Shown: one piece after another, positions 13,946 to 39,337 of the stretch
How the letters are laid out: every line of letters starts with the position of its first letter
Numbering within the stretch: position 1 is the first letter of the stretch
IMG/VR virus record: IMGVR_UViG_3300035182_001709
DNA length: 64,000 nucleotides
Strand: one strand, 5' to 3'
Source of the DNA: a virus
Lineage: Duplodnaviria; Heunggongvirae; Uroviricota; Caudoviricetes
The notes under the pieces: generated by a model
Seen by the model: the letters and a program-made list of their open reading frames with translations, nothing else
Databases searched by the model: none
What the model was told of the DNA's origin: nothing
Position numbers and translations under genes: made by a program

Positions 13946-13971
13946 ATACAGTCGATCATCGAGATGATCGG

Positions 13972-14349: not shown

Positions 14350-14375
14350 GTTGCTGTTACTGTAAGGATACTCTA

Positions 14376-23958: not shown

Positions 23959-24288
23959 GTTTCATGTGTATCCCATGTTGGTGCACAGTTTCACAGGAGG
24001 GCACTTGAATTTTCTCGAAAAATCCCGCGTGAAATTTGCGCACAGTGGGCCCAGAGGGAAAGGCAGTTCGATCGGGAAATTGCCTGCGTCGTATGTGATG
24101 CCTTAGCGCGGGAGGCCTCCCGAGAAGGCCCCACAAAGGCTGCCAGAAGGGGCGGGGCCCCGCCCCCTATTTAGGGGGCCATTTAGGGGGTCCCGAAGGG
24201 GCCCTTTTAGGGGGCTGAAATAGGGGGCCCTGATGGCCCCGTTGAAGAGCCCCTCTCGCGGGTGGGGCCGGCGCCCCCCCCCACGTCA

Positions 24289-24471
24289 CTAGATCATCTC
24301 CACGTTGTGGCGGACAGCGAACCATGTCGTACATGACGGTGTCGGTCCCCGGTGCCGCGTGTAGTGACCCTCCGTCAGGAAGACTTCCTCATCGCGATGG
24401 CAGCGGCACGTCGCGGTTCGCTGAGGCACTACGACAGTGACCGGAAGAGGTGTGGTTGTCTCCGTCGTCAT
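24289..24471 (-). CDS. small Cys-rich protein, paralog of 24924..25202 (shared RDEEVFLTEGH...NVE)
   Basis: ORF. Confidence 0.45.
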   Translation of the reverse strand: MTTETTTPLPVTVVVPQRTATCRCHRDEEVFLTEGHYTRHRGPTPSCTTWFAVRHNVEMI

Positions 24472-24923
24472 CTGTAATTGCTACTCGCAGGAAGAATTGT
24501 CTACTGCTGAACGAGCGTGGCAGCTCGAGACCGGATGCTTCGAGCTCGCAATGGCTTCACGGGCACCGCGGCTCCTACGAGGCGACCGTCACTGCCGGGC
24601 GAAAGGGTGGCGACCCTCTGACTGCCATGATGAAGAGCACGTCTCCGCTCGCCGGCCTGTCGCCCGAAGAACGGAGAGAGTACTTCCGAGCCGCCGGCGG
24701 GGCGCGGCAAAGAGCAGGCAACACACCTGAGTCGTGCTCAGTCATTGAAGACGACGATGTAAAAGCGGCAGCAACTCCCCGCCTCTCGCGCTGACCGCGA
24801 CGGCGGACCCTCAGGGTCGACTGGAACTCGGGTACATCATCTGCTGCTGGGCGGCTTCCATGATCTCTATCCAGACACCCCAAATCAGTCGGGAGACTTG
24901 CGCGGTCTTCGGCGCACCCTGCG

Positions 24924-25202
24924 TCACCAGTTCTCCACGTTGTAGCGGACAGAGGAGACCAGCCGCTCGCCGCCCAGCGGACCAACGCGGACCAGGTCGT
25001 ACGTGACCACGTCGGCCCCTCGGCGCCGCGTGGAGTGGAACGCCTTGGCCGCCGACTTAGCCTCGGCCTCCGTGGCGTGGCCCTCCGTCAGGAAGACTTC
25101 CTCATCGCGGCAGCAGTCCTCCTCGTGGCCGCAGCACGGGCAGCAGAGGCACTCGTAGTAGCCCTTGACCTTGTACGTGACCGGCTTGGTGTTCTTGCTC
25201 AT
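24924..25202 (-). CDS. small Cys-rich protein (CLCCPCCGHEEDCC), leaderless start
   Basis: cassette 25203..25238 directly upstream of ATG. Confidence 0.5.
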   Translation of the reverse strand: MSKNTKPVTYKVKGYYECLCCPCCGHEEDCCRDEEVFLTEGHATEAEAKSAAKAFHSTRRRGADVVTYDLVRVGPLGGERLVSSVRYNVENW

Positions 25203-25238
25203 GATCCAGTTATATCCGGTTCGCTGTTGAAGATTCAC
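25203..25238 (-). promoter_or_regulatory. promoter cassette: box A GTGAATCTTCAAC - CGAAC - TATAAC-like -10 - ATG (leaderless)
   Basis: about 22 near-identical copies between 23.96 and 38.9 kb. Confidence 0.6.
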
Positions 25239-25882
25239 CGAGCCTCCAGGTGCCGCGGGTCGATCCAGTCGCCCTGGGCATTGCGGTCCCGCCAGCTGGC
25301 GTCCGGCTTCAGCAGCACGCGGCCGCTGTGGTGGATGTAGGCGATGGTGCCCAGCGTCCCGGGCTTCACCTTGCTGCCGCTCTTGACCCGCATCTGCTTG
25401 CCCACCTCGGGGCGGTCACGGGCTTCCTTCAGCCTGCGGGCCTGCTCTTCTGCTTCCCGCTTCGCCTGCTTCTCAGCGGCTTCCTTGGCGTTCTGTTCCT
25501 GGATCGCGGTCCATGCCTCCAGGTCCTGGAACAGTTCCGGGATCGCCAGCGCGATGTAGTCGACCGAGGGCTCGCGGTGGGGCAAGCCACGCCAGGTGAA
25601 GATGTTGGTGCAGTCGACCCAGGCGAACCGGTCGGCGGGAGCGAGCTGCACCACAGGATTGGTCTCGGACTCGGGCAGCCCGGATATCGTTGTTTGCTCC
25701 CGCCCGAGCCAGACCAGCGCCTCCGTGACGGTGCAGCTGCGGAAGTCCGTGTAGTCGAGCGTGTCCGAGAAGTTCCGGATGGCCACGTAGCTGCGAACCT
25801 TGACAACACGCCCGAGGTGGGTAATCTCAGACCGCTCGACGTTGCCGGTGTTCGGATTGGCGTAGGTCTCGATGATCGGCAT
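25235..25882 (-). CDS. hypothetical protein (215 aa)
   Basis: ORF with cassette at 25883..25922. Confidence 0.55.
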   Translation of the reverse strand: MPIIETYANPNTGNVERSEITHLGRVVKVRSYVAIRNFSDTLDYTDFRSCTVTEALVWLGREQTTISGLPESETNPVVQLAPADRFAWVDCTNIFTWRGLPHREPSVDYIALAIPELFQDLEAWTAIQEQNAKEAAEKQAKREAEEQARRLKEARDRPEVGKQMRVKSGSKVKPGTLGTIAYIHHSGRVLLKPDASWRDRNAQGDWIDPRHLEAR

Positions 25883-26523
25883 GAGTCTAGTCTACCACGA
25901 TCGCCCCGCACATTGCACAGATTTCCGCGACAATTCTCCAGAGGACCGTGAAGCCGACACCTCCCGTGAGGCAGCCTCGCAGTCGGAGTTCGGACCCGTC
26001 ACGGGAGGCGAACCCGGGAAAGAAGCATAGACGTCGATCGTCCCGCCGCGGTGCCTGAAGTGGCGACTTCCATGATCGTCGCACCTTCTCATTGCCTCGC
26101 GGCGTATCTCCAGATACGGATCTCTGTCTCTATCTCTGTCTCTGCCCAGCTGACGTTGTGGACCGTGGACCAAGCACACATTGACCGTAAGGGTCACCCG
26201 GACGTTCTTAGAGTCCGCGCCACGATGGAGGCAGTCTTCTTAACAGCGGGCTTCTTGACCGTGTTTAGATCATGTCTCACGCCGCCCGTGGAGATTCACA
26301 GTCAGTCTGCGTTCCATTGTCCCGTCTTTACCATGTGCTTGACCAGCGAGCCGAGCTTCGTCTGCGGCTTCTCGTTCAAGACAAGAAAGGCATAGATGAT
26401 CAGAACGCAGGCTCCCGCTGCAAGCAATCGCTTACTATCGTCCGTCATTGGGCCTTGAAGAAGTCATCGACTGAGCAACCGTGGCTCTCAGCCCGCAATG
26501 CTGCCACTGCGGGCGCTCTGGCT

Positions 26524-26778
26524 CTAAGGCTCGTGGTGCGTCTGCACCGTCTTGATGTTGACGGTGACCTTCCCGCTCTCGCCCAAGGCAGTGAAGACGC
26601 GCTTGAGGCGGTCGCTCTCCTCGTCGGTGTCGAACTCGCGGTTGACGTCGATGTCATCGTCGTTGAGCGTGAAGGGGATGTTGTACTCGTTGCACAGGAT
26701 CTGTAGGGCCCGAGCGAAGGAGGTCTTGCCCGAGGCGCAGGGTCCGGAGATGACGATGTTGAGGGTCCTGTTCTTCAT
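26524..26778 (-). CDS. mini P-loop NTPase (84 aa, Walker A ISGPCASGKTS)
   Basis: ORF with cassette upstream (GTGAACACTAACC...TGATAGGATAGAG). Confidence 0.5.
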   Translation of the reverse strand: MKNRTLNIVISGPCASGKTSFARALQILCNEYNIPFTLNDDDIDVNREFDTDEESDRLKRVFTALGESGKVTVNIKTVQTHHEP

Positions 26779-27523
26779 GGCTTTACTCTATCCTATCATG
26801 TCGCAGGGTTAGTGTTCACTCAGCAACGTGCGATTCACGCTTGAAGTGGTACCACCACGTGGACCCAAGCACGATGACCGTGACCAGGTCCCAACCCTGG
26901 TCACCCTTTTCTTTCAGGAAGATCTCGAGCTTGCCATGAGGCAACTCGAGAGGACTCAGACGCATGACATTGTATTCGAAAGTCTTCACGAGCTTGTCCT
27001 GTCTTGAGGGTCAGACGGGTTCACTTCATCATGAAGAAGATGAAGACGCTGCTGCTCACGATGAGCAGATTCATCACGATGAAAAAGATCGTGACCTCGC
27101 GCCAATCGACGTTGCCCAGGAAGGGAGTGCGACCTTTGTTGAACATGATCTTACTGTACCACTCAAGTCAGAGGGAGTTCACAGAGGATTCATCACAACA
27201 TGTCGGGGTTCCGCTGATGATCCTATGTCCGCCTCAGGTCACAGTCGAGGCTCGGGCAGCTCTCTCTCTCCAAGTCCGTGATCCGCTGCAGTGCAATCGC
27301 AAACTGAGATTCCAGCTCTGTGACCCGGGATTCCAAGGACTTTCTCCTGCTCGCGGTCTTGAGCCTGTGCTACGTGCCCGTGAACCGGGCAGTCTGGTTC
27401 TTCCGCGATGAAGGGCCCGCGAGGCGGCGGTCCTGAGCACGTCCCTGCTTTCCATCATAAAGTCGCATCCCTCCGGCGACTCGCATGATATCGAGCTTCC
27501 TGTGTCGCGCGCTACCTCACACA

Positions 27524-27766
27524 TCAACGCCCAGACGGGCGCGGGTTGGCGAGGCACTCGATGTCTCCACAGGTACAGTCCCAATGGACGAACTGCATGC
27601 CCTTGATGTAGTGCCGCGTGCCCTTGCTGCGGTTGTTCTGCGAGTGCTTCACCGCCTCTTCCCAGCGGATGTGCCGCATGCGGGACTGCGGGAGGAAGAC
27701 ACCACCGTTGGCCTTGAAGCCACTGTCGCGGCGGATCTTGTTGCTGACACGTTCGTAGATCCTCAT
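27524..27766 (-). CDS. hypothetical small protein (80 aa)
   Basis: ORF plus cassette 27767..27807. Confidence 0.5.
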   Translation of the reverse strand: MRIYERVSNKIRRDSGFKANGGVFLPQSRMRHIRWEEAVKHSQNNRSKGTRHYIKGMQFVHWDCTCGDIECLANPRPSGR

Positions 27767-27807
27767 GTCTCTACTCTACCCCGATCGCAGTTGAAGATTC
27801 ACCGGGA
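27767..27807 (-). promoter_or_regulatory. promoter cassette GTGAATCTTCAAC-TGCGATC-GGGGTAGAGTAG-agac-ATG
   Basis: repeat family. Confidence 0.6.
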
Positions 27808-27844
27808 CTGAGTCACCCGGTTGAACTGTGGAACAAGGTTCATC

Positions 27845-28099
27845 TCAGTTATCGACGCGGGAGCTCAAGTAGCGGACGATTCGCTGGTACCCGTCGACCA
27901 TGCCGGTATCCGCGTCCAGGATCAGGTCGGCCAGGAAGGGATCGTGCTCGCGGAGGGCGTTCAGCATCTGGGCATAGCGATCGTCCTGCGCGGCAGCCGT
28001 AAGCTGGTCGGCCATGACGCTATGCGACGCCAACAGCTGCGTGATCGCGGTGTTGAACTCCTGTTTCGACAAGGCGGGCTTCTTGGGCTTGCTCATCAT
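27845..28099 (-). CDS. hypothetical small protein (84 aa)
   Basis: ORF plus cassette variant. Confidence 0.5.
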   Translation of the reverse strand: MMSKPKKPALSKQEFNTAITQLLASHSVMADQLTAAAQDDRYAQMLNALREHDPFLADLILDADTGMVDGYQRIVRYLSSRVDN

Positions 28100-28120
28100 G
28101 GGTTAATCCTATGCTCAGAG

Positions 28121-28351
28121 CTAGGGCTTTTTCACTGTGGCACGGCAGAGGTTTCTGGTGTCCGCGGACTTGATGAACTCACACCAGCTCGGGTCCTTCT
28201 TGGTTGTCGCCAGGCAGAAGTTCCGCCCGTCGGGATCCTTGATGAACTCGCAGTTGCTCGTTGCGGCCCGCGCCGTCATCAAGAAGAGCAACACTGTCAG
28301 CCCAATCAAGGCTGCGAAGACCAGCATCAGGAACTTCTCACGGGGCATCAA
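28121..28351 (-). CDS. secreted or membrane small protein with internal repeat (CEFIKDPDGRNFCLATTKKDP / CEFIKSADTRNLCRATVKKP)
   Basis: signal-peptide-like N-terminus. Confidence 0.5.
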   Translation of the reverse strand: MMPREKFLMLVFAALIGLTVLLFLMTARAATSNCEFIKDPDGRNFCLATTKKDPSWCEFIKSADTRNLCRATVKKP

Positions 28352-28656
28352 AATATTCTTTGATATTGTAGAATGGTTCTACACCACCTAAGCACTCGGG
28401 ACCAGTCTTGAAACTGGCGCCTCTGATCTGGTCCCCCACCCAGGAGTCGAACCTAGTCGATTCACCGTCAACCCTGGAGGGCGCCGCTACCCGCGAGCCT
28501 TTTTGACGATGTGGGAGAGAGTTGAAGGGAAAGTTTTTTACGAGCGTTGCATCCCAATTGCTCGAATTGAAGTGGTCTCTTTTTGATTCGGCTGGGAGAC
28601 CGTGACCAGCCAGTGAGTCTACTCTATCCAAATCGTGGTGGAGAGTTCACTGTCTC
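28352..28656 (-). ncRNA. noncoding segment downstream of a cassette promoter, containing a tRNA 3' half (T-arm CTAGG-TTCGACT-CCTGG, acceptor strand, discriminator, CCA) and a following hairpin
   Basis: no ORF; T-arm nearly identical to that of tRNA 13972..14053. Confidence 0.35.
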
Positions 28657-28884
28657 TCAACCGTACTTCTTCAGCTCTGCCAGAGCCCACCGCTTCAGCT
28701 CGGGCTCGAAGCGCTCCACCCGCGAGCGCGTCTCAGGATCCAGGTCAGGGTCCTCCGCCAGTGCGAAGAAAATGCTCTCGAGGTGATCCACCGCGCCCTC
28801 ACCGTCCTGCGAGCCACAGTCACTCGCGAGCCCTTCCCACGCCGCCGCGACCGCACACTTGAAGTCTCGTTCGGTGATTGCCAT
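28657..28884 (-). CDS. hypothetical small protein (75 aa)
   Basis: ORF plus cassette 28885..28924. Confidence 0.55.
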   Translation of the reverse strand: MAITERDFKCAVAAAWEGLASDCGSQDGEGAVDHLESIFFALAEDPDLDPETRSRVERFEPELKRWALAELKKYG

Positions 28885-28924
28885 GAATCTATCCTACCCT
28901 GTTCAGAGGCGAAGGTTCACTGCG
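28885..28924 (-). promoter_or_regulatory. promoter cassette GTGAACCTTCGCC-TCTGAAC-AGGGTAGGATAG-attc-ATG
   Basis: repeat family. Confidence 0.6.
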
Positions 28925-29123
28925 CCCACCGAGCCGCGCCCAGCATCTCCTTGCTCGAGAGGATCTCTGCGTCGAGCATCAGCATATCGTGGCTCAGCCA
29001 ACGCCGGGCCCGCTTGATCGCCTCACCTTCGGTGGCGGCCTTGATCTTGATGGCGCTGGGCTTCACTGCGACCGCACCGAGCTTGCGGAAGAGAACGCGG
29101 AAGATGCGAATGTCAGGCGGCAT
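28917..29123 (-). CDS. hypothetical small protein (68 aa)
   Basis: ORF; start overlaps upstream gene stop. Confidence 0.5.
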   Translation of the reverse strand: MPPDIRIFRVLFRKLGAVAVKPSAIKIKAATEGEAIKRARRWLSHDMLMLDAEILSSKEMLGAARWAQ

Positions 29124-29290
29124 CGAGCTGCTCCTTCATGGCGTCCCGGGCCTCGATACGCTTGGCGCGGCGGTTGATGGCGCGCTTGATGCGGGCCGCG
29201 GGCTTGCTGAGTCCACCGCCACAGTCCTTGCTGGTGTAGCGGCCGGCTTCTTCCCAGTGCTTGTTGGCGATCTTCTTCCAGGTGGCCATG
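29114..29290 (-). CDS. hypothetical small protein (58 aa; not in ORF track)
   Basis: manual translation MATWKKIANKHWEEAGRYTSKDCGGGLSKPAARIKRAINRRAKRIEARDAMKEQLDAA; cassette 29291..29331. Confidence 0.45.
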
Positions 29291-29307
29291 TGTCTACTCT
29301 ACCACGA

Positions 29308-29661
29308 TCAACCGGGAGTTTGCACCAGGCCCGCCTTGACTGCCGCGAGCTCCGCGAGCTGGGTTCGGGCATATGTGTGGGCCAGCTTCCGCGCCTGCTC
29401 CAGGTGGATGCCGGTGAGGTGGTTCCCGCGGGCCAGCCACTTGCCGTAGTAGGCAATGCGATGCCCATGACTGTGACGGACGCCCACTTGGTTGTTAACG
29501 TGAGTGCTCTCGGTCGCCTTCTCGGAAGTGGTCTGGCGCTCGTAGAGGACCTTGATGGCACGCTCCACCGCGGCAGGATTGGCGTCCAGGGACGCGCGGA
29601 CCTTCGCGGTCATCTCAGAGCGAACCTTGCTAGAGAGCTTGATGCGAGCGGGGTGGGCCAT
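29308..29661 (-). CDS. hypothetical protein (117 aa)
   Basis: ORF plus cassette 29662..29700. Confidence 0.55.
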   Translation of the reverse strand: MAHPARIKLSSKVRSEMTAKVRASLDANPAAVERAIKVLYERQTTSEKATESTHVNNQVGVRHSHGHRIAYYGKWLARGNHLTGIHLEQARKLAHTYARTQLAELAAVKAGLVQTPG

Positions 29662-29700
29662 GATTTGATTCTATCCCGATCGATGTTGAAGATTCACGGA
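29662..29700 (-). promoter_or_regulatory. promoter cassette GTGAATCTTCAAC-ATCGATC-GGGATAGAATCA-aatc-ATG
   Basis: repeat family. Confidence 0.6.
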
Positions 29701-29987
29701 GTCGCGCGGATCGTGAGACCCTCCACGTTGGTGAGCCCGAGCTCCTTGGCCGACCAGGGCGTGAAGATGACGTCAACGGTGCACTTCCACTTCGCGGTGG
29801 CCAAGAACTGGGTGATGGCTTTGGCGATCTCCGAGGTGTGGCGGCACTTCCCGAAGCGCTGAGCGCCCTCGCAGGTGCAGCGTCCACGGTTGTCCAGCCG
29901 GTAGACGCGATCGTCAAATGGGTTGTCCGAGAAGACGTATGCCATCGTGGTGTGGAGAGACTCTCGGTGGGCCTTGATCCGTGCCAT
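29694..29987 (-). CDS. small SWIM-type zinc-finger protein (CTCEGAQRFGKCRH)
   Basis: ORF plus cassette 29988..30027. Confidence 0.55.
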   Translation of the reverse strand: MARIKAHRESLHTTMAYVFSDNPFDDRVYRLDNRGRCTCEGAQRFGKCRHTSEIAKAITQFLATAKWKCTVDVIFTPWSAKELGLTNVEGLTIRATP

Positions 29988-30027
29988 GAGACAATCCTAC
30001 CTCAGTTCACCAAGGATTTGCACCGTC
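29988..30027 (-). promoter_or_regulatory. promoter cassette GTGCAAATCCTTG-GTGAAC-TGAGGTAGGATTG-tctc-ATG
   Basis: repeat family. Confidence 0.6.
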
Positions 30028-30191
30028 ACCCGTGAGGCCCTCTCAGGCCCGGTAGGTAGGAAACCCTGTCCTGACCGGGAAGGCACTCACGGGGGTCACT
30101 GGTGGGTCCGGTCAGGGGTCCCGCTTGGGCAGTGATCGATCATTGCATCGAGTTCGTTGTTCTGGCTCGTGTTCTTCCCCTCTCTCTCCCC

Positions 30192-30557
30192 TCAGTCGAC
30201 CGAGCACATCAGCGCTTCCTGGACCAGCGTCTGGTTGAGGCCCTGCTTGAAACCGTGGAACGTGCGCCAGGTGAAGCGCTTGGTGGGCTGCCCGTAACGC
30301 TTGAAGTTCCACCGCTCGTCCGCGATGATGGACTTGACGAGCTTCAGCACGTCCTTCGGGGACGAGGACTTTGCCTTCATGTGGAGGCGCTCCTCGAAAC
30401 CCGTGGTGTCGCCGGATCCGTCCATGCCGCCAACCGGCGAGCTGGAAGAGACGATCACGTGAACCAGGCGGGTATCTGCGTCGAGCTGGACCTCCATGCG
30501 ATCCGTGTACCGCGAGTCACCTGCGATGTTGGCGTAGATGTAACCGAGTTGGATCAT
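30192..30557 (-). CDS. hypothetical protein (121 aa)
   Basis: ORF plus cassette 30558..30598. Confidence 0.55.
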   Translation of the reverse strand: MIQLGYIYANIAGDSRYTDRMEVQLDADTRLVHVIVSSSSPVGGMDGSGDTTGFEERLHMKAKSSSPKDVLKLVKSIIADERWNFKRYGQPTKRFTWRTFHGFKQGLNQTLVQEALMCSVD

Positions 30558-30648
30558 GGGTCTAGTCTACCTCATCTTCTGGGAGAAATACACAGCCCCG
30601 TGAGAGCTTCTAGCGCTCGCGGGCTTGCAACTCATTGCACTGCTTGGG

Positions 30649-30861: not shown

Positions 30862-30967
30862 CACTTCTTCTCTTTGCGTTTGAAGGGCCCCTCGTGGAGG
30901 ATCGCCTGCTTGATCTGCTCGCGGGTTTTGGCCATGTCTCTGTTGTACCTTGTTTCGTTGTTGAAGT

Positions 30968-31186
30968 TCACAGCTGCGCGGCACGCTGGAGGCAATCACG
31001 CCACTCTCGGCAGAAGTAGTCCCACTCCTCGTGGCTGGGATCACGGCCCAGCACGCCCGAGACAGTGCGGCGGACTGCGTGGTCGGGCTCGTGGCCCAGT
31101 TCAGCCCACTCCTCGGCCATGCCGCTGCCGATCGTGATGTCCCAGGCCGTGCTCTCGAGGATCCGACGGGTGCCTTGGTTGACCAT
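30968..31186 (-). CDS. hypothetical small protein (72 aa)
   Basis: ORF plus cassette 31187..31228. Confidence 0.55.
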   Translation of the reverse strand: MVNQGTRRILESTAWDITIGSGMAEEWAELGHEPDHAVRRTVSGVLGRDPSHEEWDYFCREWRDCLQRAAQL

Positions 31187-31228
31187 GAGATTATCCTACC
31201 ATGTTCAGATGTGAATTTGCACTCGCAA
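31187..31228 (-). promoter_or_regulatory. promoter cassette GTGCAAATTCACA-TCTGAAC-ATGGTAGGATAAT-ctc-ATG
   Basis: repeat family. Confidence 0.6.
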
Positions 31229-31533
31229 CGGACATTGGACGGTGCCCACCAGCCACGCCACGTGATCCACGAGCGTCATCAGCACCAGCTCGAGGCGGGC
31301 CATGCGCTTCTAACTTGTCCGCGAGGCCTATTGTAGGCCCAAGTCACAGACGATTTGCACAATGACACACGTGAATACTCACGGGCCCAAGTGGGGTAAC
31401 CCATTACCCTGACATGAAAGCACTCACGTGGGTCCCACGGGGGCTGTGACCGTGGCCCGAAACGGGGTCAAGGCCTGACCCAGTGAGGATCGCGGCCTTG
31501 ACTGTTGGAGTTTACCTTGTGAACTTCTGCGAA

Positions 31534-32181: not shown

Positions 32182-32293
32182 GGTGTTCTCTCCGTGAATC
32201 CTTGGTTTTGGTGGGTGCCAGCTTGTAGGTTGAATCTATGTCACACCGCAGGTGCTTTACACCCACGAAGTTCGCAAAGATTCGTTGATGATT

Positions 32294-32533
32294 TCAGGCA
32301 TCGAGCTCGAACCAGGTCTCGACCAGCGCCTTCGCGTGGGGCTTGCGCTGCTTGACCGTGATGCTGCCGTCGTCGTTGACGCTCTCGACGGTGGCCGGGA
32401 CGTCCTTGCGGAAGGCGCTCGCCTCCCCATCCTTTTCCGCGACGAACCCGTAGAGGACGCCCTTGTGGCAGAGGGCGAGGGTACCCATGGTCGAGTAGAT
32501 GCGGCGCGGCGAGTCGGAGGTCTTCATGCTCAT
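32294..32533 (-). CDS. hypothetical small protein (79 aa)
   Basis: ORF; cassette with 40-nt leader. Confidence 0.5.
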   Translation of the reverse strand: MSMKTSDSPRRIYSTMGTLALCHKGVLYGFVAEKDGEASAFRKDVPATVESVNDDGSITVKQRKPHAKALVETWFELDA

Positions 32534-32612
32534 GGTGTGCTCTCTTCCGTGGTGGTAAGGTTGGAGGGGGCTTGATTAGCCTATCACGTGATCTGGGGAA
32601 CTTGCACTGCGT

Positions 32613-32876
32613 TCAGTCATTGAAGATGTGAAGCCGGGTGCCCTGCTCGTCGGCCGACTTGTAGATCCAGGCAGCGATCTCGCCGTCGTTCACCTCGGTG
32701 TTCTCGTAGAGGAAGTCCTTGGTGCGCCCGGTGCGGTGGCTCTGAACCGTCAGCTTCATCGGGGCGCACCAGTCTGGGCTCATGCAGGCGATGCTGGAGG
32801 CCTCCGTGATGCCAACGTTATCCTTCCAGATGAAGATGAAGCCAGGGATGACCGGGATGTCGCAGGAAGTTTCCAT
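32613..32876 (-). CDS. hypothetical small protein (87 aa)
   Basis: ORF plus cassette 32877..32912. Confidence 0.55.
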   Translation of the reverse strand: METSCDIPVIPGFIFIWKDNVGITEASSIACMSPDWCAPMKLTVQSHRTGRTKDFLYENTEVNDGEIAAWIYKSADEQGTRLHIFND

Positions 32877-32908
32877 GGTTCTAGTCTACCACGATCCTCA
32901 CTAAAGGT

Positions 32909-33094
32909 TCACATCTCGCGGGTGATGATCTCCTCATCGTCAACGTCTTTGTTCCAGACGTTGATCGACAGGCACCGCGCCTTCTAGGAGGCGAGCTCTG
33001 TTGCTTCCTCCTCCGTCGCAGCCTCGACCTCAACGCCCCGCGAGAGGCGTTGGATGACCTTAACGGTCTAGGTGCGGACCTTGGGCTTAGGCAT
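32909..33094 (-). pseudogene. cassette-driven 61-codon reading frame interrupted by two in-frame TAG codons (pseudogene or readthrough candidate)
   Basis: ATG placed exactly like other cassette genes (cassette 33095..33139); TGA stop embedded in next cassette; TAGs at 33068-33070 and 32984-32986. Confidence 0.3.
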
Positions 33095-33168
33095 GTCTAG
33101 ATCCTAAACACGCCGGGACTTGAAGATTCACAGTGCAAACTTTCGTCCATGTGTGGTAGACTAGAACC
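33095..33168. promoter_or_regulatory. back-to-back divergent cassettes sharing CACAGTG core (minus GTGAATCTTCAAG...; plus GTGCAAACTTTCG...GTGGTAGACTAGaacc-ATG)
   Basis: strand switch of the small-gene array. Confidence 0.55.
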
Positions 33169-33393
33169 ATGGAAACCATCCAGTGCCGGACCTGCGGCGG
33201 CGTCGCCCATCCCGCGACCGGGTGCGCCTACACCGCGACCTTCATCGTCTGCGGGCCGTGCACCCGCGAGTTCTGGGCCTGGCTGCGCTCGCGGGTCAAC
33301 AGCCGCCCGAGTCGGCGCCACGGTGGCCCGAGCTTTTACGATCACGTCAACCGCGTCGCTCCCCCTGTGCAAATCCACCACGAAACGGAGTAA
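33169..33393 (+). CDS. small Cys-rich zinc-binding protein (CRTCGG...CGPC)
   Basis: ORF; plus-strand cassette 33140..33168. Confidence 0.55.
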   Translation: METIQCRTCGGVAHPATGCAYTATFIVCGPCTREFWAWLRSRVNSRPSRRHGGPSFYDHVNRVAPPVQIHHETE

Positions 33394-33402
33394 GATCTAA
33401 TC

Positions 33403-33771
33403 ATGGCCAACACCACCAACGAAATCATCGGCTACCGCGTCGTCAACACCCGTGACCAGGTCTTCGTCGACCATAACCCTAGCTTCTCTGGGTCCGGCAA
33501 CTTCCAGACCTCCCGTGAGCCGACGCCCATCTCGCGCGGCGATGCCTTCCGACGCCTCGCGGCCTTCCTCGATGCCTTCCCCGAGGAAGATCACCAGAAA
33601 TTCGCCGTCGAGCCCGTCTACCGTGAGCTGACGCCCATCGAGTCCAGTGCCCGCGAGCTCGGGAGTCTCCTGTCTTCCCTCTGCCAACGCCACGGGATCA
33701 ATCTCGGTATGTCCCAGGCCGAGATCGAGGCCCAGCTCGTCCGCGAGCTCCGGGCGTTCGGCGCCCGCTGA
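33403..33771 (+). CDS. hypothetical protein (122 aa)
   Basis: ORF. Confidence 0.55.
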   Translation: MANTTNEIIGYRVVNTRDQVFVDHNPSFSGSGNFQTSREPTPISRGDAFRRLAAFLDAFPEEDHQKFAVEPVYRELTPIESSARELGSLLSSLCQRHGINLGMSQAEIEAQLVRELRAFGAR

Positions 33772-33859
33772 GTTCACACCACAACTAGCGCACACGGGGC
33801 TCGGGCAATCGCTCGGGCCCCGTGTGCATTTTATCCCGCGATCGTGATACACTAGAACC

Positions 33860-34162
33860 ATGGCAACCAACCTCAAGTTCGCTGATGTGCTAAACTACCT
33901 CGCCACGTGCCAGCTCACCCCCACGGAGACGCAGCAGCTGGCCAAGGCCTGGAACGCCAACATCAAACGGCAGCGTACCGCGACGAAGGAGACCGCGATC
34001 GCCCAGTTCCGCGTCGGACAGCGCGTCAGCTTCACGGCCCGTGGCGGGTTTCCCTGCACCGGCGTCATCGAGAAGGTGATGCGGGTCAACTGCTGGGTCC
34101 GTGAGGATATGACGAAGCAGCGCTTCTACTGCCCGTCGACCTGCCTCAAGATCATCGCCTGA
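33860..34162 (+). CDS. hypothetical protein (100 aa)
   Basis: ORF plus cassette ending CACTAGAACC-ATG. Confidence 0.55.
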   Translation: MATNLKFADVLNYLATCQLTPTETQQLAKAWNANIKRQRTATKETAIAQFRVGQRVSFTARGGFPCTGVIEKVMRVNCWVREDMTKQRFYCPSTCLKIIA

Positions 34163-34177
34163 TCCTCGCTCGCGGGT

Positions 34178-34223
34178 GTGCAACTCGTTGCAAAGGCACC
34201 GACAGGTGTGGTAGGATAAATCC
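34178..34223 (+). promoter_or_regulatory. plus-strand cassette TGTGCAACTCGTTGCA...GGTGTGGTAGGATAaatcc-ATG
   Basis: repeat family; preceded by conserved GCGCTCGCGGG extension. Confidence 0.55.
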
Positions 34224-34679
34224 ATGACCTGGGGCAAGCGACCCTCATCACGTGGTAGGGGACCGATCAACTGGAAGAAGGACGCAGAGACCTTCGCGGT
34301 GCCGGTTGGCAAGATTCGGCGTCATACCCACGAGGAAGACGTCCCACTCGAGAAGCAAGAACTATACGCCGCCCACATGGTCCCGGGCGCGATGTGGGAG
34401 GTGATGAAGGACCTCGAGCTGGTCAAGCTCGGTCCCAACGTGGTGCAGCCGCCCTTTCCACTGCTGCAGGTCCACATACCTCGCACCTGGGATCCGACCT
34501 ACGATCCCAACAAGTCGACCGTTGCCCGCGCCAAGGCCATCGCTCTCTACGTTGACTCCGTCCGCGTGGATGAGCAGGGCAAGCAGGGCACGCTCCGCGT
34601 GGTCCGCCACACCTTCATCGTCGGCGGCGGGCGCTACATCATCACAGATCTCAACTGGGTCAGGCCGATTGATGACTGA
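34224..34679 (+). CDS. hypothetical protein (151 aa)
   Basis: ORF plus cassette 34178..34223. Confidence 0.55.
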   Translation: MTWGKRPSSRGRGPINWKKDAETFAVPVGKIRRHTHEEDVPLEKQELYAAHMVPGAMWEVMKDLELVKLGPNVVQPPFPLLQVHIPRTWDPTYDPNKSTVARAKAIALYVDSVRVDEQGKQGTLRVVRHTFIVGGGRYIITDLNWVRPIDD

Positions 34680-34959: not shown

Positions 34960-34967
34960 ACGACTTT

Positions 34968-35012: not shown

Positions 35013-35137
35013 GGCCTAGGTTACAGGGACTACGTCGGTTCGCCCTTTCACCTGCTTATAAAATATATTTGCTCAGGGCATGCACCATGCCATACCCGAC
35101 CCCCGAGCGACGCTGGTTGATGGGAAGTCCCTACGGA

Positions 35138-35545
35138 CTATCCCTCTTTCTTCCCATCGCTTGACTCCTCCTCTCGCTTGATGGTCTTGAGCTGCTTGAC
35201 CATCGGCTCAACCTTGGTCTTCATGACTTCATCGTAGACAGCCTGCTTGCGCGCCAGCCTCTGCCTCCGTGAAGGTCGCGTCGGCTTGCCTTTCTTTGGG
35301 ACGGCAACGTATTTGTTCTTGACGAGCTTCTTTCGCTCCTCGGGCAGCTTCACCAGCTGCTTCTTCATCTGCTTACGCCACAGCTTGCGAAACTTCCGCT
35401 TCAAGCGTCGGGCATCTTCCTGCTGCAGGCCTTTCAACGCACGGCGGACGTCCATCGTCGGGTCTTCCATCGGGACGATGCCCTCTTGGAACATTGCCGT
35501 ATGGATGAAGATTCGCGTGGCGTCGTTGAGCTTGTTGTTGCGCAT
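35138..35545 (-). CDS. basic Lys/Arg-rich protein (135 aa)
   Basis: ORF. Confidence 0.5.
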   Translation of the reverse strand: MRNNKLNDATRIFIHTAMFQEGIVPMEDPTMDVRRALKGLQQEDARRLKRKFRKLWRKQMKKQLVKLPEERKKLVKNKYVAVPKKGKPTRPSRRQRLARKQAVYDEVMKTKVEPMVKQLKTIKREEESSDGKKEG

Positions 35546-35880
35546 CAGCTGCCTCCGACCTTCTGCTGCCAGACTCGTCGAATCGATTCTATCGCCTGGT
35601 GCATCCGTTGTGCACCGACGGGATTGGCCGAATGAACGCTGATGATCTCAGGCGGGATGAAGTCCTGACGGGCGCACTGCTCTTCCAACCAGCAGACAAC
35701 ATCGTAGCCGGTGCCTGCGCTCAGAGGTCCCAGATCGTGGTCGAGGCTTAGCTCCACCACGCGGCCCGTCTCCAACAGGCGCTGCGCGCCCGCCGCTGTC
35801 TTGGCGTGGATCCAACCTGAGGGCGCAGGCCGCTCATCATCAAGCCACAGTCGCATCGTCATCTGCTTCTGCTGGGTCAT
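35545..35880 (-). CDS. hypothetical protein (111 aa)
   Basis: ORF. Confidence 0.5.
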   Translation of the reverse strand: MTQQKQMTMRLWLDDERPAPSGWIHAKTAAGAQRLLETGRVVELSLDHDLGPLSAGTGYDVVCWLEEQCARQDFIPPEIISVHSANPVGAQRMHQAIESIRRVWQQKVGGS

Positions 35881-36427: not shown

Positions 36428-36440
36428 GCAGGTAACTAGG

Positions 36441-37601
36441 TCACTTCTTCTTCCCTCCCGCCCCGGGCGACTTGAAGATGCCGGGGATGTCAGGAACGAT
36501 GCCGATGCCAGCCTCGCCCATCGGGACGCCGAAGACGTCCAGGACTGCGGCCGCGCAGTACTTGTGGATGCTGCGTGCCAGCTCCATTTTGTCGGTGCCA
36601 GGCAGGGTCAGCTTGGACCAGCAGTTGACGCGCTGCTCACCCGGCAGGTCCTTGAGAAACTGCTTCAGGTTGGTGCCTTGCTTCTCGGTCAGACTGTTGA
36701 GGTTCTTGGTCACGTGGTCCGAGACCTTATCGACCAGATCGTTGATGCGGTCGGCCGTGAACTTCTTGACCTTGTGCTGGACCTTGTCGTACCCGTCGAT
36801 CACGTCTTTGCCCGAGACGCGGGTGTCGACGGTGACCGCGAAATCGTGGAAGGCGATCGCCGCCTCGACACCGACGAAGCCCACGGCTATGTGGTAGAAC
36901 AGCGGGTTGCTGGGATCATCCGCGACCCCGGCGTGCTTGTGCGAGCGGTCCATACGCTCCCAGCTACGCCGCGAGGAATGAACGCTGCCGGCCTCGGCGC
37001 CCTTGGGCGGGTCGAGCCACTTCTCGCCGTTGGCAGCGTGGAAGTCGATCAGGGTCGGGTGAATGTCACCCTCGCCCTTTGCCCAGGCGAGCCAGTCCTT
37101 GACGTCCGGCTTGAGGTCGACGACCCAGAAGCGATCGAGGAGCGCCGGATCCATCTCGTTGACCGTGTACTCCTGTGAGGAGTTGATGGCCGACCAGACG
37201 CGGGTCTGGGGGTGCAGCTTCCAGCCGTTGAGCTCACGGTCGAGCACGATCTGGAACGCTGCCTGCATGACCTCCTGGGTCGCGCGGTTCAGCTCGTCCA
37301 GCAGGAGGAAGCAGGGCCGGACGCAGGCACGCTTGTACCAGTCGGGCGGATTGAAGCGCGTGACCTCGCCGTCGGTGCTGGGGAGGCCGATGAGATCGCC
37401 TTCCGTCTTCTGCGACAGGCGCTGGTCGATGAACTCGAAGTCCTTGATCTGCTCCGCGTGAGCGATGATGCGGGCGACCTGGCGAGCCAGCTGCGACTTG
37501 CCGATCCCGTGAGGACCGCGCAGCAGGACGGAGATGAAGGCGGGGAGCTTGGGAGAGACGTCCACAAGGGTATGGATCGCCATGGAGTTGGGAGTTGCCA
37601 T
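36441..37601 (-). CDS. MoxR/AAA_5-type AAA+ ATPase
   Basis: Walker A GPHGIGKS; 'LLLDELNRATQEVMQAAFQIVLDRE'. Confidence 0.75.
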   Translation of the reverse strand: MATPNSMAIHTLVDVSPKLPAFISVLLRGPHGIGKSQLARQVARIIAHAEQIKDFEFIDQRLSQKTEGDLIGLPSTDGEVTRFNPPDWYKRACVRPCFLLLDELNRATQEVMQAAFQIVLDRELNGWKLHPQTRVWSAINSSQEYTVNEMDPALLDRFWVVDLKPDVKDWLAWAKGEGDIHPTLIDFHAANGEKWLDPPKGAEAGSVHSSRRSWERMDRSHKHAGVADDPSNPLFYHIAVGFVGVEAAIAFHDFAVTVDTRVSGKDVIDGYDKVQHKVKKFTADRINDLVDKVSDHVTKNLNSLTEKQGTNLKQFLKDLPGEQRVNCWSKLTLPGTDKMELARSIHKYCAAAVLDVFGVPMGEAGIGIVPDIPGIFKSPGAGGKKK

Positions 37602-37645
37602 GTGGTGGTGTCTCTATCCTAACTTAGCGAGTCCCGGCTTTACAC

Positions 37646-38341
37646 TCAGGAGACGCGGTGGAGGTGCGAGGTGTTCGGCCGCCGCTCGTCGACGGTGATG
37701 GTGTACTTGCGCTCGACCTTGCCGTTGTAATCGTCCCGCGAGACGGGGTAGACGCCCGTCTTGATGCCCGGCAGCAGCGAGGAGGGGATGTTGCGATCCT
37801 GACCCACGCGCATACCCTTGCGGACCATGTCGGCGGCCTCGTGGAGAACACGCTCGATGCGGGCTTCCTCGGCCTTGCGTTCCTGCTCGGCCATGAACGC
37901 CGCCTGCTCCTCCGCGGTGCGGATGCAGACCGCGATCCCGTCGCCGATTTCCGCGTTGATCGCCTCCGTGAGCTCGACGACCCTGGTGTAGAACTCCAGG
38001 CGCGCCTTGGCGAGGGCGGGCCGCGTGTCTCCGTGGCTGGGCCAGTTGACCTCGACGCGGAACTTGTAGTTCCGCCAGATCGACCCGTCCTCACGGGGCT
38101 TCAGGTCGCGGGTCCAGTCGATCGTATCGAACCGCACGTAGAGGTCACAGCTCGTGTCGATCTGCTCCGTGGTATCGCGGAACATCACGGACACGTTGCC
38201 CGCGGAGCCCGACTTGCGCTGCTCGCGGAGCGACTGCATGGTGTGCGGGGACAGGTACTTCTGCGCGATCTCGCTGGCAAGGATGAGGTCGATGGCCTTG
38301 TGAGCGCGGTCGATGATGAGGGGCTGTTGCATGGCGTTCAT
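37646..38341 (-). CDS. hypothetical protein (231 aa)
   Basis: ORF plus cassette 38342..38383. Confidence 0.55.
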   Translation of the reverse strand: MNAMQQPLIIDRAHKAIDLILASEIAQKYLSPHTMQSLREQRKSGSAGNVSVMFRDTTEQIDTSCDLYVRFDTIDWTRDLKPREDGSIWRNYKFRVEVNWPSHGDTRPALAKARLEFYTRVVELTEAINAEIGDGIAVCIRTAEEQAAFMAEQERKAEEARIERVLHEAADMVRKGMRVGQDRNIPSSLLPGIKTGVYPVSRDDYNGKVERKYTITVDERRPNTSHLHRVS

Positions 38342-38373
38342 GAGTCTATCCTACCAGGATCAGAGATGAAGGT

Positions 38374-38667
38374 TCACAGCAGCGCCAGCGAGATCGCCAG
38401 CTCCAGTCCGGGCTCCGTCAGTGCAAACACGTGAGCACCTGACTTCGTCTTGCCGACGACCTCGATGAAGCCTCGGTGCACCAGGGACGCTCGCCAGCCG
38501 TACCCGTCTCGTCCGGAGGTGACGAGGGAGTGCCCCCACGTCGGGCTCTGGAGCGCTCGTCGCTTCTGTTGGATCACTGCGAAATCTTTCACCGTTGCCG
38601 TCTTGTTGCGGACGAGGGTGAACAGGATATCGCGGATCGTGGGAGAAATGCGGCTTGGATTGACCAT
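38374..38667 (-). CDS. hypothetical protein (97 aa), possible winged-helix
   Basis: ORF plus cassette 38668..38703. Confidence 0.5.
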   Translation of the reverse strand: MVNPSRISPTIRDILFTLVRNKTATVKDFAVIQQKRRALQSPTWGHSLVTSGRDGYGWRASLVHRGFIEVVGKTKSGAHVFALTEPGLELAISLALL

Positions 38668-38703
38668 GAGACTATCCTACCAGGTTCAGCGTTGAAGATT
38701 CAC
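38668..38703 (-). promoter_or_regulatory. promoter cassette GTGAATCTTCAAC-GCTGAAC-CTGGTAGGATAG-tctc-ATG (consensus copy); box A supplies the TGA stop of the upstream gene
   Basis: repeat family. Confidence 0.6.
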
Positions 38704-38855
38704 TGCGCGCCACAGGCGCTTGACCTCACGCCATAGTTCCTCGACTGTGCACGCAATCTCCTTGCGGAACTCTTTTGAGAGAGGACGCGAGGACTGTGCC
38801 CGGACGTTGTCCGTTAGGATCTCGATGTCCGCGTCGGTCAAGGGGCGCTTGCCAT
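38703..38855 (-). pseudogene. cassette-driven small gene with frame disruption directly after ATG (ATG-GCA-AGC-GCC-CCT-TGA; protein-like frame continues in -1 frame)
   Basis: cassette 38856..38891 positions the ATG; the open frame KRPLTDADIEILTDNVRAQ... lacks a start. Confidence 0.3.
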
Positions 38856-39337
38856 GGTTCTAGTTTAACTCAGCGAACCCAAAGTTTGCACTGCGAGCAC
38901 AGAATATTCGTAGAATCAAGCCATAAGATACCCCGTCGGGCCCATGAAAGCCCTCCCGTGGGTCCCCTGTGGGCACAGTTTTGGTTGCTCATGGGCCCGA
39001 GAAGTGTAAGAGCTCATGGGCCCAGGGTACTATAAGACCATGAGCAACGCCTTCTAGAACTTCGTCAGGCAGCACGATACAGGCATCTCGCGGACCGGGT
39101 GTCCACGCGGCACCTCTCGGGTTCGATCTTGACCTGACTCACCTGTCGGAGCTGCTGCGGCTTGCCCAGCAGACGGGTTACCAGCTCTGCAACACGGGCT
39201 GGGATGACTGCATCATGGTCACCTAGACTTTCAGCGTTGGCTGATCGCGCTCGCGAGTGTGCAACCCATTGCACTGGGTGAAAATCAGCGCCTGGGCGTG
39301 ATAGACTGTAGACCTCCACCACCACGGGGTAAGATAT

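Follow-up and report, generated by a model that had tools for sequence, protein, structure and literature searches.

Here we analyse a 64,000-nucleotide (nt) stretch of DNA from a virus of the class Caudoviricetes (IMG/VR record IMGVR_UViG_3300035182_001709), hereafter the window, and describe a cassette of about 36 base pairs (bp) that precedes most of the small genes in a 15-kb part of it (positions 23959 to 38900). In this cassette, a conserved box at the -35 position, which we call box A, is held at a fixed distance from a -10-like hexamer, and the hexamer in turn stands at a fixed distance from an ATG. The cassettes are probably genuine promoters of the sigma-70 family, which by their geometry would give leaderless messenger RNAs (mRNAs), with one promoter for each small gene.

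The cassette in the window and its clade

The strict pattern GTGNA followed by TANNNT at an offset of 24, corresponding to an 18-nt spacer between the hexamers, occurs at 43 sites on the two strands of the window. The other offsets tested (16-33) gave 0-7 sites each, typically about 3, save for offset 29, where a peak of 14 sites reflects the tandem TAGGATAGACT. An ATG lies exactly 6 nt past the -10 hexamer in 26 of the 43 strict sites. We built a position weight matrix (PWM) from these 26 leaderless sites and scanned the whole window with it over positions -38 to -1, with the ATG excluded and a cut-off of at least 10 bits, which gave 44 matches, compared with a mean of 1.0 in 30 Markov shuffles. 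In about 24 of the matches, the predicted +1 falls on a called gene start, and in these cases cassette and gene share a strand. Because the matrix had been seeded with GTGNA, we retested the enrichment with an anchor free of box A (TANNNT-N6-ATG followed by an open reading frame (ORF) of at least 40 amino acids (aa)), and obtained 28 starts, as opposed to 3-7 at other distances; GTGNA stands at -36 in 22 of the 28. The recurrent cassette that a preliminary description had placed in this stretch is therefore present, and far above chance.

Box A reads GTGnAA, often GTGnAAnTTC, and covers about 11 bp from -36 to -26, centred on -31. Its information resides in G-T-G-n-A at -36 to -32 and, more weakly, in T-T-C at -29 to -27, whereas position 4 varies freely among A, C and T. 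Of the 28 anchored starts, 23 carry G at -36 and a single one carries T; the box is thus not TTGACA-like there, while its placement and spacing fit a -35 element. The -10 hexamer, TAnnnT, conserves T1, A2 and T6, which were fixed in the search pattern and yet are enriched, as judged from the offset peak and the ATG anchor. Upstream of it, the anchored starts carry G at -14 (23 of 28), T or G at -15 (14 and 10 of 28, respectively) and G at -13 (19 of 28), and the matrix favours G at -16, -14 and -13 with T/G at -15, then the hexamer itself (T-A-n-n-n-T, -12 to -7) followed by A-G-A. The spacer measures 18 nt in 44 cassettes and 17 or 19 nt in 5. The cassettes are mutually 60-79% alike, and only a 13-nt asymmetric form of box A, GTGAATCTTCAAC, recurs exactly, 4-5 times and co-oriented with transcription. 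Thus, of the 'about 22 near-identical cassettes' in the preliminary description, the number holds for the leaderless copies and the near-identity does not, and the additional box B (TGAAC or CGATC) is poorly conserved, its positions carrying just 0.06-0.4 bit each.

Between 23959 and 38900, 22 cassettes have the ATG at the predicted +1, that is, a leader of 0 nt, and six more are leadered. In the following, each cassette is named by the first base of its box A, with its extent and matrix score in brackets ('PWM' marks a match listed without a bit value). On the minus strand, leaderless copies lie at 23994 (23956-23994; 16.3 bits), where GTGAAA-N18-TACACA leads to ATG 23958 of a 113-aa ORF, at 25918 (25880-25918; GTGCAA-TAGACT, ATG 25882, 215 aa; 33.4 bits), at 27182 (27144-27182; GTGAAC-TACAGT, ATG 27146, 41 aa; PWM), at 27802 (27764-27802; GTGAATCTTCAAC-TAGAGT, ATG 27766, 80 aa; 35.3 bits) and at 28135 (28097-28135; GTGAAA-TAGGAT, ATG 28099, 84 aa; PWM). 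Further along the same strand are 30023 (29985-30023; GTGCAAATCC-TAGGAT, ATG 29987, 97 aa; PWM), 30593 (30555-30593; GTGTAT-TAGACT, ATG 30557, 121 aa; PWM), 31222 (31184-31222; GTGCAAATTC-TAGGAT, ATG 31186, 72 aa; 37.2 bits) and 38891 (38853-38891; GTGCAAACTT-TAAACT; PWM), whose ATG 38855 opens a 5-codon mini-ORF. The plus-strand island at 33.1-35.0 kb is as first described: it comprises 33133 (33133-33171; GTGCAAACTT-TAGACT, ATG 33169, 74 aa; 34.6 bits), 33367 (33367-33405; GTGCAAATCC-TAAGAT, ATG 33403, 122 aa; PWM), 33824 (33824-33862; GTGCAT-TACACT, ATG 33860, 100 aa; PWM), whose box A overlaps the 3' arm of a terminator hairpin, and 34188 (34188-34226; TTGCAA-TAGGAT, ATG 34224, 151 aa; PWM), the sole copy with T at -36, whose box A lies within the palindrome TGCAAC-TC-GTTGCA.

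Among the leadered copies, all on the minus strand, 32262 (32179-32262; GTGTAA-TAGATT) has a 45-nt leader with a GGAGAG Shine-Dalgarno (SD) sequence before ATG 32181 (215 aa), 32607 (32531-32607; GTGCAA-TAGGCT; 24.2 bits) has a 38-nt leader with a purine-rich SD before ATG 32533 (79 aa), and 31360 (31301-31360; GTGCAAATCG-N19-TACAAT) has a leader of about 20 nt before ATG 31303 (32 aa); these match the three copies with 25-45-nt leaders reported earlier. The leader is 8 nt at 37645 (37599-37645; GTGTAA-TAGGAT, ATG 37601; PWM), which precedes a 386-aa AAA ATPase whose orthologues have the same promoter type with 25-35-nt SD leaders, and 5 nt at 26819. Copy 28650 (28614-28650; GTGAAC-TAGAGT; 25.7 bits) has no ATG at +1 and is followed by an ORF-less leader of about 270 nt before the gene at 28345-28121. 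The ORF-less segment (28614-28346, minus strand; the gene behind it encodes a signal peptide) includes a tRNA-like T-arm and ACCA (GGTTCGACTCCTGGGTGGGGGACCA); with no Rfam match at E<=1, no credible ARAGORN call and a fold z-score of -1.4, we rejected an RNA gene here and left it as a long leader.

About 60% of the genes in the 15-kb stretch use the leaderless arrangement, and there are 26-30 such genes in the 64 kb. A cassette does not stand before every small gene, as had been stated: about 8 of about 36 genes, with starts at 26448, 26989, 29123, 30864, 34672, 35880, 36427 and 38841, lack one and are apparently internal to operons. We considered a second promoter class for these genes and saw no recurrent motif upstream of them; box-A-less TAnnnT-N6/7-ATG starts number only about 4 (17557, 49180, 52198 and 57257), which is within chance.

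The genes are tightly packed. Nineteen boxes read GTGA, and in 8 of them, at 6157, 9392, 25238, 26819, 28920, 29697, 30971 and 38377, the TGA ends a solid upstream gene. Thus, on the minus strand, 25238 (25200-25238; GTGAATCTTCAAC-TATAAC, leaderless ATG 25202; PWM) stops gene 25235-25882, 26819 (26776-26819; GTGAAC-TAGGAT(AGAGT), ATG 26778 of an 84-aa P-loop protein; PWM) stops 26816-26989, 28920 (28882-28920; GTGAACCTTC-TAGGAT, leaderless ATG 28884, 75 aa; 37.5 bits) stops 28917-29123, 29697 (29659-29697; GTGAATCTTCAAC-TAGAAT, leaderless ATG 29661, 117 aa; PWM) stops 29694-29987, 30971 (30933-30971; GTGAACTTCAAC-TACAAC, leaderless ATG 30935, 24 aa; PWM) stops 30968-31186 and 38377 (38339-38377; GTGAACCTTC-TAGGAT, leaderless ATG 38341, 231 aa; 38.6 bits) stops 38374-38667. 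Other genes end at a TGA in the spacer (+15), as upstream of 29325 (29287-29325, minus strand; GTGCAAACTC-TAGAGT, leaderless ATG 29289, 58 aa; PWM), or at TAG or TAA in or after the hexamer. The relatives' box, GTGCAAAG, contains no TGA, TGA is the stop of 79 of 102 rough gene calls in the window, and 8-9 of 19 is near the one-third expected when a gene runs into the box. The earlier claim that GTGA repeatedly supplies the upstream stop thus survives for these boxes and for the packing, and any special role of this stop lacks support. Neither of its examples is straightforward. At 38703 (38665-38703, minus strand; GTGAATCTTCAAC-TAGGAT, leaderless ATG 38667 of a 97-aa protein with a weak winged helix-turn-helix match; 37.3 bits), the TGA at 38700-38702 is in the wrong frame, and the coding ORF ends at the spacer TGA at 38688-38686. 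The other, at 32909-32911, is the ninth GTGA stop and belongs to 32912 (32874-32912, minus strand; GTGAACCTTT-TAGACT, leaderless ATG 32876, 87 aa; 33.8 bits). It ends a gene only if two in-frame TAG codons are read through, since they interrupt the coding-looking ORF 33094-32909 (minus strand) that starts at ATG 33094 of cassette 33131 (33092-33131, minus strand; GTGAATCTTCAAG-N19-TAGGAT), a leaderless copy back-to-back with 33133 on the plus strand. This ORF is either a pseudogene or a local case of read-through. Stop-codon recoding across the genome was rejected: TAG read as sense joins coding-like sequence at one site only (32986), and TAA at none.

Cassettes run from 3355 to 62441, and the array is therefore not confined to the 15-kb stretch as previously delimited. 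Outside the stretch, leaderless copies on the minus strand precede a 452-aa ATP-dependent DNA ligase (3317-3355; ATG 3319; 31.6 bits), ORFs of 60 aa (4493-4531; ATG 4495; PWM) and 198 aa (9983-10021; ATG 9985; PWM), a protein with a ribosomal L7/L12 C-terminal domain (22692-22730; ATG 22694; PWM) and, in a weaker form, GroEL (62403-62441; ATG 62405; 12.1 bits), and those on the plus strand precede ORFs of 221 aa (41099-41137; ATG 41135; PWM), 26 aa (43284-43322; GTGAATCTTCAC, ATG 43320; PWM) and 239 aa (47173-47211; ATG 47209; PWM). Another plus-strand copy (39004-39042; PWM), divergent from 38891, opens a 5-codon mini-ORF at ATG 39040. A leadered copy with a GGAGG SD (7805-7840, minus strand; GTGTAT-N17-TAGAAT) stands before the operon that contains a sigma factor gene, and one with a 24-nt leader and a palindrome directly upstream (39278-39340, plus strand; PWM) before the KaiC/RecA-like ATPase gene 39338-40102. 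On the minus strand, a predicted +1 lies 3 nt before tRNA-Ile 13081-13007 (13084-13120; PWM), and a predicted start 14 nt before tRNA-Ile 14349-14273 (14363-14398; spacer 17). Since ligase, GroEL, the sigma operon, the L7/L12-domain gene and tRNAs share the cassette, it is, by its sequence distribution, the general promoter type of the window and of the whole phage clade; the regional regulon for early host takeover under one element that had been suggested is not supported.

The window is a piece of an uncultivated jumbo phage that belongs to a large clade, because relatives of its ATPase and its sigma factor lie on contigs of up to 370 kb. With the AAA ATPase (36441-37601) as query, we found relatives at 39-63% identity on 25 IMG/VR contigs, which reach 340 kb; the sigma factor as query gave more than 120 cluster representatives, 67-98% identical to it and located on contigs that reach 370 kb. 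The cassette geometry is enriched in the related contigs L003-L021 (GC content 45-58%), with the consensus caGTGCAAAGTTc...tGGTAnnnTa.aACC-ATG and box A in the form GTGCAAAGTT, and is absent from the distant contigs L022-L025. In relatives, loci of 10-14 kb each contain 18-23 leaderless cassettes (median ORF, 71 aa), and the exact pattern GTGCAAAGT-N13-GGTA-N3-T-N6-ATG occurs in up to 8 copies per locus of about 12 kb in a small set of IMG/VR contigs. Upstream of the ATPase orthologue, 19 related contigs retain GTGCAAAG...GGTAnnnT at 25-35 nt from an ATG led by AAGGA or AGGAG. From these sequences, the leaderless cassette architecture is a trait of the clade. The box variant GTGAATCTTCAAC appears private to this genome, as the 53 IMG/VR matches to GTGAATCTTCAAC-N11-TANNNT are scattered, single and judged near chance.

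No close relative of the region was found among GenBank phages, IMG/VR or JGI metagenomes, apart from a 3.3-kb JGI contig of the same phage (metagenome 3300035661; 99.6% identity to window positions 4270-7636). A megablast search of GenBank phages with the 15-kb stretch gave no near match, protein-level searches there with the ATPase and the sigma factor gave only matches below 40% identity, an exact look-up found no protein on record identical to the sigma factor, and the best metagenomic match to the 231-aa protein reached only 30%. Literature searches yielded no description of this clade, nor of leaderless cassette arrays in jumbo phages.

Predicted leaderless transcripts and the reader of box A

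We propose that the extended -10 element (t/gGG plus TAnnnT, -15 to -7), the non-canonical GTGnAA box (-36 to -26) and the 18-nt spacer together recruit RNA polymerase. As the hexamer ends 6 nt before the ATG and is followed by C at -1, the polymerase would initiate at the A of the ATG. The mRNA would then have neither a 5' leader nor an SD sequence, and ribosomes would load directly on its 5'-terminal AUG. Most small genes own such a cassette, which as a rule touches or overlaps the preceding gene's stop codon. A terminator scan gave 13 terminator-like sites, compared with 10.5 expected, and only one convincing case, a strong hairpin at 33790-33827 that overlaps box A of 33824; the transcripts of successive cassettes should thus be nested, and the region would be expressed as a series of individually started transcription units.

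The sequence at the predicted start is consistent with this scheme. The A of the ATG is the seventh nucleotide after the hexamer and follows a C in 23 of 26 sites, forming a pyrimidine/purine junction, in keeping with the leaderless mRNAs first proposed from the geometry. The hexamer lies at -12 to -7 from the ATG in 26-30 genes, in which the only SD-like 4-mers are AGGA or GAGG in or beside the hexamer. Every start codon at +1 is ATG, and none is GTG or TTG, both of which occur among the rough gene calls elsewhere in the window. This fits the need of leaderless translation for a 5'-terminal AUG (Brock et al. 2008).

Several points weigh against this interpretation. Box A departs from TTGACA at its best-conserved position, with G and not T at -36, and a scan for canonical TTGACA-N16-18-TATAAT promoters found 1 site with 3.0 expected. 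Three cassette ATGs open ORFs of just 5-8 codons. With a single strong terminator, read-through from upstream cassettes would make long transcripts with internal ATGs, on which the AGGA of TAGGAT (about 10 of 26 cassettes) could serve as an SD. Both the start site and leaderless translation are deduced from geometry, and would depend on the promoter consensus of the host and on its capacity for leaderless translation.

The window encodes an RpoD-like sigma factor (6579-7382, minus strand) that covers regions 2, 3 and 4.1, aligns to residues 358-572 of the 613 of E. coli sigma-70 and then stops, before the region 4.2 helix. Past the motif RLRFGL, a tail of 25-28 residues (consensus v-D/E-D..tdS..YPITxEExxxVMxGKgLT) is found in 119 of 120 family representatives, whose contigs reach 370 kb; in E. 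coli sigma-70, about 47 residues follow the equivalent motif. In an AlphaFold model, domain 4 contains three helices (206-225, 228-237 and 254-261) and no fourth, the basic residues of the recognition helix are missing under either plausible alignment, and the stop codon is confirmed by the independent contig of 99.6% identity. The phage sigma factor is thus devoid of the -35-recognition helix of region 4.2 throughout its family, which excludes a canonical reading of box A and, with it, the simple use of this protein as a test reader of the cassettes that had been envisaged. Sigma-70 without region 4.2 is still active at extended -10 promoters, and the phage protein, a candidate reader of this element, could plausibly recognize the TG-extended -10 sequence.

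On balance we lean slightly towards the host primary-sigma holoenzyme, for the first round of transcription at least. It may be what fires the cassettes early in infection, given that a cassette of the same type precedes the sigma operon itself; in addition, box A lies exactly at the -35 position, and 34188 carries TTGCAA. It is conceivable, if somewhat less so, that the cassettes are specific to a phage apparatus and are not host-sigma promoters, with the truncated sigma taking over the extended -10 element while a separate factor reads box A, as MotA of phage T4 does at -30. The length, the central position and the G(-36) of box A (GTGCAAAGTT in relatives) speak for such an apparatus, as do its conservation over a clade of 45-58% GC, the scarcity of canonical promoters, and the sigma truncation, on which model and independent assembly agree. 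Sufficiently sampled clade members carry a sigma 72-98% identical to that of the window, and at least 3 contigs hold ATPase and sigma together. However, the cassette before the sigma operon would have to fire at a time when no phage sigma has been made, unless these factors enter the cell together with the phage DNA, and the T of TTGCAA in 34188 does not suit a phage-specific box. Furthermore, we detected no candidate for binding box A: the neighbours of the sigma gene have no Pfam hits, and no MotA or AsiA family appears among the 25 families listed of 49 Pfam families in 99 predicted proteins, from 64 kb of a genome of about 350 kb. A stronger version, which we regard as unlikely, is a host-orthogonal channel in which the sigma on the extended -10 and a partner on box A, as a split or adaptor-assisted sigma factor, supply leaderless mRNAs for most small genes; an IF-1 homologue and an L7/L12-domain protein are likewise phage-encoded. 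If true, phage expression would need neither -35 recognition by the host nor SD/anti-SD pairing, and the phage could shut these off.

The exact, asymmetric 13-nt repeats of GTGAATCTTCAAC, co-oriented with transcription, could also suggest that box A is mainly the operator of a regulator, similar to stoperators, or that the cassette serves recombination of small genes, similar to the PeSL elements of T4, with promoter activity secondary or absent. Some cassette pairs are identical into the first codons, such as the 24 nt at 32869-32892 and 33153-33176 (100%), and the region consists of small ORFan genes, as with PeSLs (PMC2839356). Nevertheless, we consider this improbable: the rigid 18-nt phasing of box A to TAnnnT, and from there to the ATG, is a need of promoters and not of operators, position 4 of box A is free to be A, C or T, the stem-loops that define PeSLs accompany 1 of about 28 cassettes, and the databases searched hold no close relative of the region in which such an exchange could be seen.

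A translation signal is less probable still. TAGGAT is the commonest -10 variant and offers AGGA at SD-like spacing, 7 nt from the ATG, so that ribosomes might bind the element as an SD-like site, or it might act as a Cluster K type start-associated sequence; an SD-like 4-mer is indeed scored in 10 of 26 leaderless-class genes, because TAGGAT contains AGGA. Yet the invariant bases are T1, A2 and T6 and not the GGA core, as positions 3-5 of the hexamer vary and TAGACT, TAGAGT, TACACT, TAAACT and TACAGT are used equally, so that a purine core is not the conserved feature, and TAGGAT as a ribosome-binding site was discarded on this ground. A second box at a fixed 18 nt has no role in ribosome binding. 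Moreover, the element is separable from translation: it also stands 20-45 nt upstream of distinct SDs, before tRNAs and before the ORF-less stretch, and its distance to the ATG varies among the relatives' orthologues, all of which marks a transcription signal and bears out the earlier argument from the leadered copies. Least probable of all is that the element is an RNA processing or termination site that trims one long transcript to the AUG, since, even if long transcripts are expected from the near lack of intergenic terminators, the bipartite form, the TG-extended TAnnnT and the C(-1)A(+1) junction are hallmarks of DNA promoters, the terminator and repeat scans found no cassette-linked stem-loop save the hairpin at 33790-33827, and back-to-back divergent copies (33131 minus, 33133 plus) make sense in DNA and not in RNA.

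Host and neighbouring features

The phage GroEL (60798-62405, minus strand; 652 bits against the GroEL model) is 50-53% identical to homologues from Proteobacteria, Bdellovibrionota and Ignavibacteria (about 52% across diverse Gram-negatives), with no actinobacterium among the best 80 matches, and these neighbours single out no host. The sigma factor scores best against proteobacterial RpoD models, and leaderless genes occur also in Deinococcus-Thermus, Xanthomonadales, Legionellales, Acidobacteria and Chloroflexi (PMC3160421). The 'Actinobacteria-type' expression of the preliminary description is therefore unsupported. Among the translation-related genes of the window are an IF-1 homologue (56946-57266, minus strand; Pfam eIF-1a, E 9e-22), which has TACAAT 7 nt before its ATG and no box A, and the protein with the L7/L12 C-terminal domain (22200-22694, minus strand); both could bear on the translation of leaderless mRNAs. 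A block at 10247-14349 (minus strand) holds 21 tRNA genes, several of them duplicated. A suppressor-like tRNA with anticodon UUA (12930-13005) was called by ARAGORN only and not reported by Rfam, and a scan of the window with TAA as sense gave no junctions that support it.

Two further conserved elements accompany the cassettes. A palindromic element of about 37 nt, TGCAAC-N2-(G/A)TTGCA beside CGCGAGCG, has four copies (30606-30642, 34159-34195, 39240-39276 and about 40900-40940) near strand switches, and adjoins or overlaps box A of 34188 and 39278, both on the plus strand. By its sequence it is a candidate operator of a dimeric regulator, with a half-site similar to box A (GTGCAA). An element of about 100 nt (core GGGACCCACGTGAGTGCTTTCATG) lies at 30024-30130, 31361-31470 and 38892-39000 (minus strand), at a fixed distance of about 53 nt upstream of three GTGCAAA-type cassettes, among them 30023, and each copy follows a non-coding gap of about 170 nt; an upstream activating region and a binding site for a regulator are possible functions.

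Cassettes open 5-codon mini-ORFs at 38855-38838 (minus strand) and 39040-39057 (plus strand). At the former, the UGA of the mini-ORF overlaps the UUG of a 51-aa ORF (38841-38686), and this UUGA overlap suggests, from the sequence, termination-reinitiation. Relatives (L178, L185, L199, L179, L218 and L007) have conserved leaderless mini-ORFs of 8 codons (METIKIGI* and MERNGAAR*). Two cassette pairs, 32869-32892/33153-33176 and 33848-33866/38849-38867, are 95-100% identical over a segment that begins with the -10 hexamer and takes in the first 2-3 codons (ATGGAAAC, ATGGCAA), a possible sign of gene conversion or recombination between cassettes, or of selection acting on the initial codons of leaderless mRNAs.

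Other parts of the window contain features apart from the cassettes. The stretch 23960-24920 comprises about 950 nt of non-coding DNA with a GGGGCCCC-rich 12-nt repeat at 24169-24215 (consensus ATTTAGGGGGCC) and, at 24358-24403, a degenerate 46-nt copy (87% identity) of part of a Cys-rich gene (25071-25116). A small protein with a cyclic-phosphate-processing receiver domain (cREC_REC) is encoded at 35545-35880 (minus strand). An 859-aa protein (44546-47125, plus strand) combines a major-vault-protein shoulder, repeat domains and an SPFH/Band-7 region, which is unusual for a phage. Short ORFs at 49923-50255 and 50721-51077 (plus strand), in a stretch of low coding score (48-53 kb), match positions 135-170 and 4-48, respectively, of the T4 Gp23 major capsid profile, and thus in the wrong order; a fragmented or intron-interrupted capsid gene, paralogues and assembly frameshifts are possible.

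Implications and comparison with known systems

If this reading of the cassettes holds, most small genes in a widespread clade with contigs of up to about 370 kb are expressed one by one as leaderless units, a layout that would count among the most compact reported for gene expression in bacterial viruses. Gene calling based on ribosome-binding sites would misplace starts in such genomes, where the cassette fixes the start codon to the base. A box A unlike the near-universal TTG of -35 elements, coupled with a family-wide sigma truncation, poses a testable question of promoter recognition, and the cassette of about 36 bp is a candidate synthetic-biology part for leaderless expression.

Leaderless genes, which make up 20-46% of genes in Actinobacteria and Deinococcus-Thermus, are recognized by a TAnnnT located some 10 bp before the start codon (PMC3160421). 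Such TA-led genes (Zheng et al. 2011, PMC3160421; Cortes et al. 2013, PMC3898074; Shell et al. 2015, PMC4633059) share with the present ones the hexamer, the start at +1 and the lack of an SD, and in GC-rich genomes their hexamer reduces to TAnnnT, as here. However, they are host chromosomal genes, amount to 20-46% and have no conserved -35 box, whereas the genes described here belong to a phage, amount to about 60% in the 15-kb stretch and have a conserved non-canonical box; moreover, the host here does not look actinobacterial, judging by the phage GroEL. In the Cluster O mycobacteriophages, promoters PL1, PR2 and PL2 (Cresawn et al. 2015, PMC4351075) likewise have +1 predicted on the first base of the start codon and include a divergent pair. 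They number three per 70 kb with canonical SigA -35/-10 elements, in contrast to 26-30 per 64 kb with a GTGnAA box. The PeSLs of T4-type phages (Arbiol et al. 2010, PMC2839356; Comeau et al. 2014, PMC4122927) resemble the cassettes in providing dozens of repeated, compact early-promoter units in variable regions, one for each small ORFan gene, with the stop of the upstream gene inside the unit and an inter-cassette identity that could support recombination. They differ in combining an E. coli sigma-70 consensus with a terminator stem-loop and an SD/start, whereas the present cassettes have a non-canonical -35 box, a stem-loop in 1 of about 28 copies and no SD or leader.

Cluster A stoperators and Cluster K start-associated sequences are likewise short asymmetric repeats of 13 nt that occur dozens of times per genome in short intergenic gaps, co-oriented or near starts. 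Stoperators bind repressors and keep no constant distance to a -10 element, and start-associated sequences have an SD-like core. Here, by contrast, the invariant bases are those of a promoter, and the 18-nt and 6-nt phasing is rigid. Many transcripts of the Thermus phage P23-45 are reportedly leaderless. Its middle and late promoters (PMC7403470), similar to those proposed here, are extended -10 promoters with -35 recognition disabled. In P23-45, gp39 displaces region 4 of the host sigma and the promoters have no -35 box, whereas here the box is conserved and it is the phage sigma that has no recognition helix. In T4 middle promoters, which pair a MotA box at -30 with a sigma-70 -10 element under AsiA/MotA appropriation (PMC7403470), a box of about 9-11 bp at -30/-31 replaces the -35 hexamer, as box A may do here. 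The MotA box and box A both lie 12-13 bp upstream of a normal -10 element, a geometry that, for box A, fits a -35 element equally well. Unlike T4, in which MotA and AsiA are present and the mRNAs have leaders, our phage shows no homologue of either among the Pfam families listed, and a box A reader other than sigma is a conjecture. Two transcriptome studies, of the jumbo phages phiKZ and AR9, reported no leaderless phage transcripts. Since repeated early promoters have been described before, as have leaderless phage genes, our findings extend existing themes and do not establish a new principle; the cassettes bring known ingredients into a new combination, with single-gene leaderless units for about 60% of the genes in the 15-kb stretch, a -35-position box of non-canonical sequence and a sigma factor truncated throughout its family.

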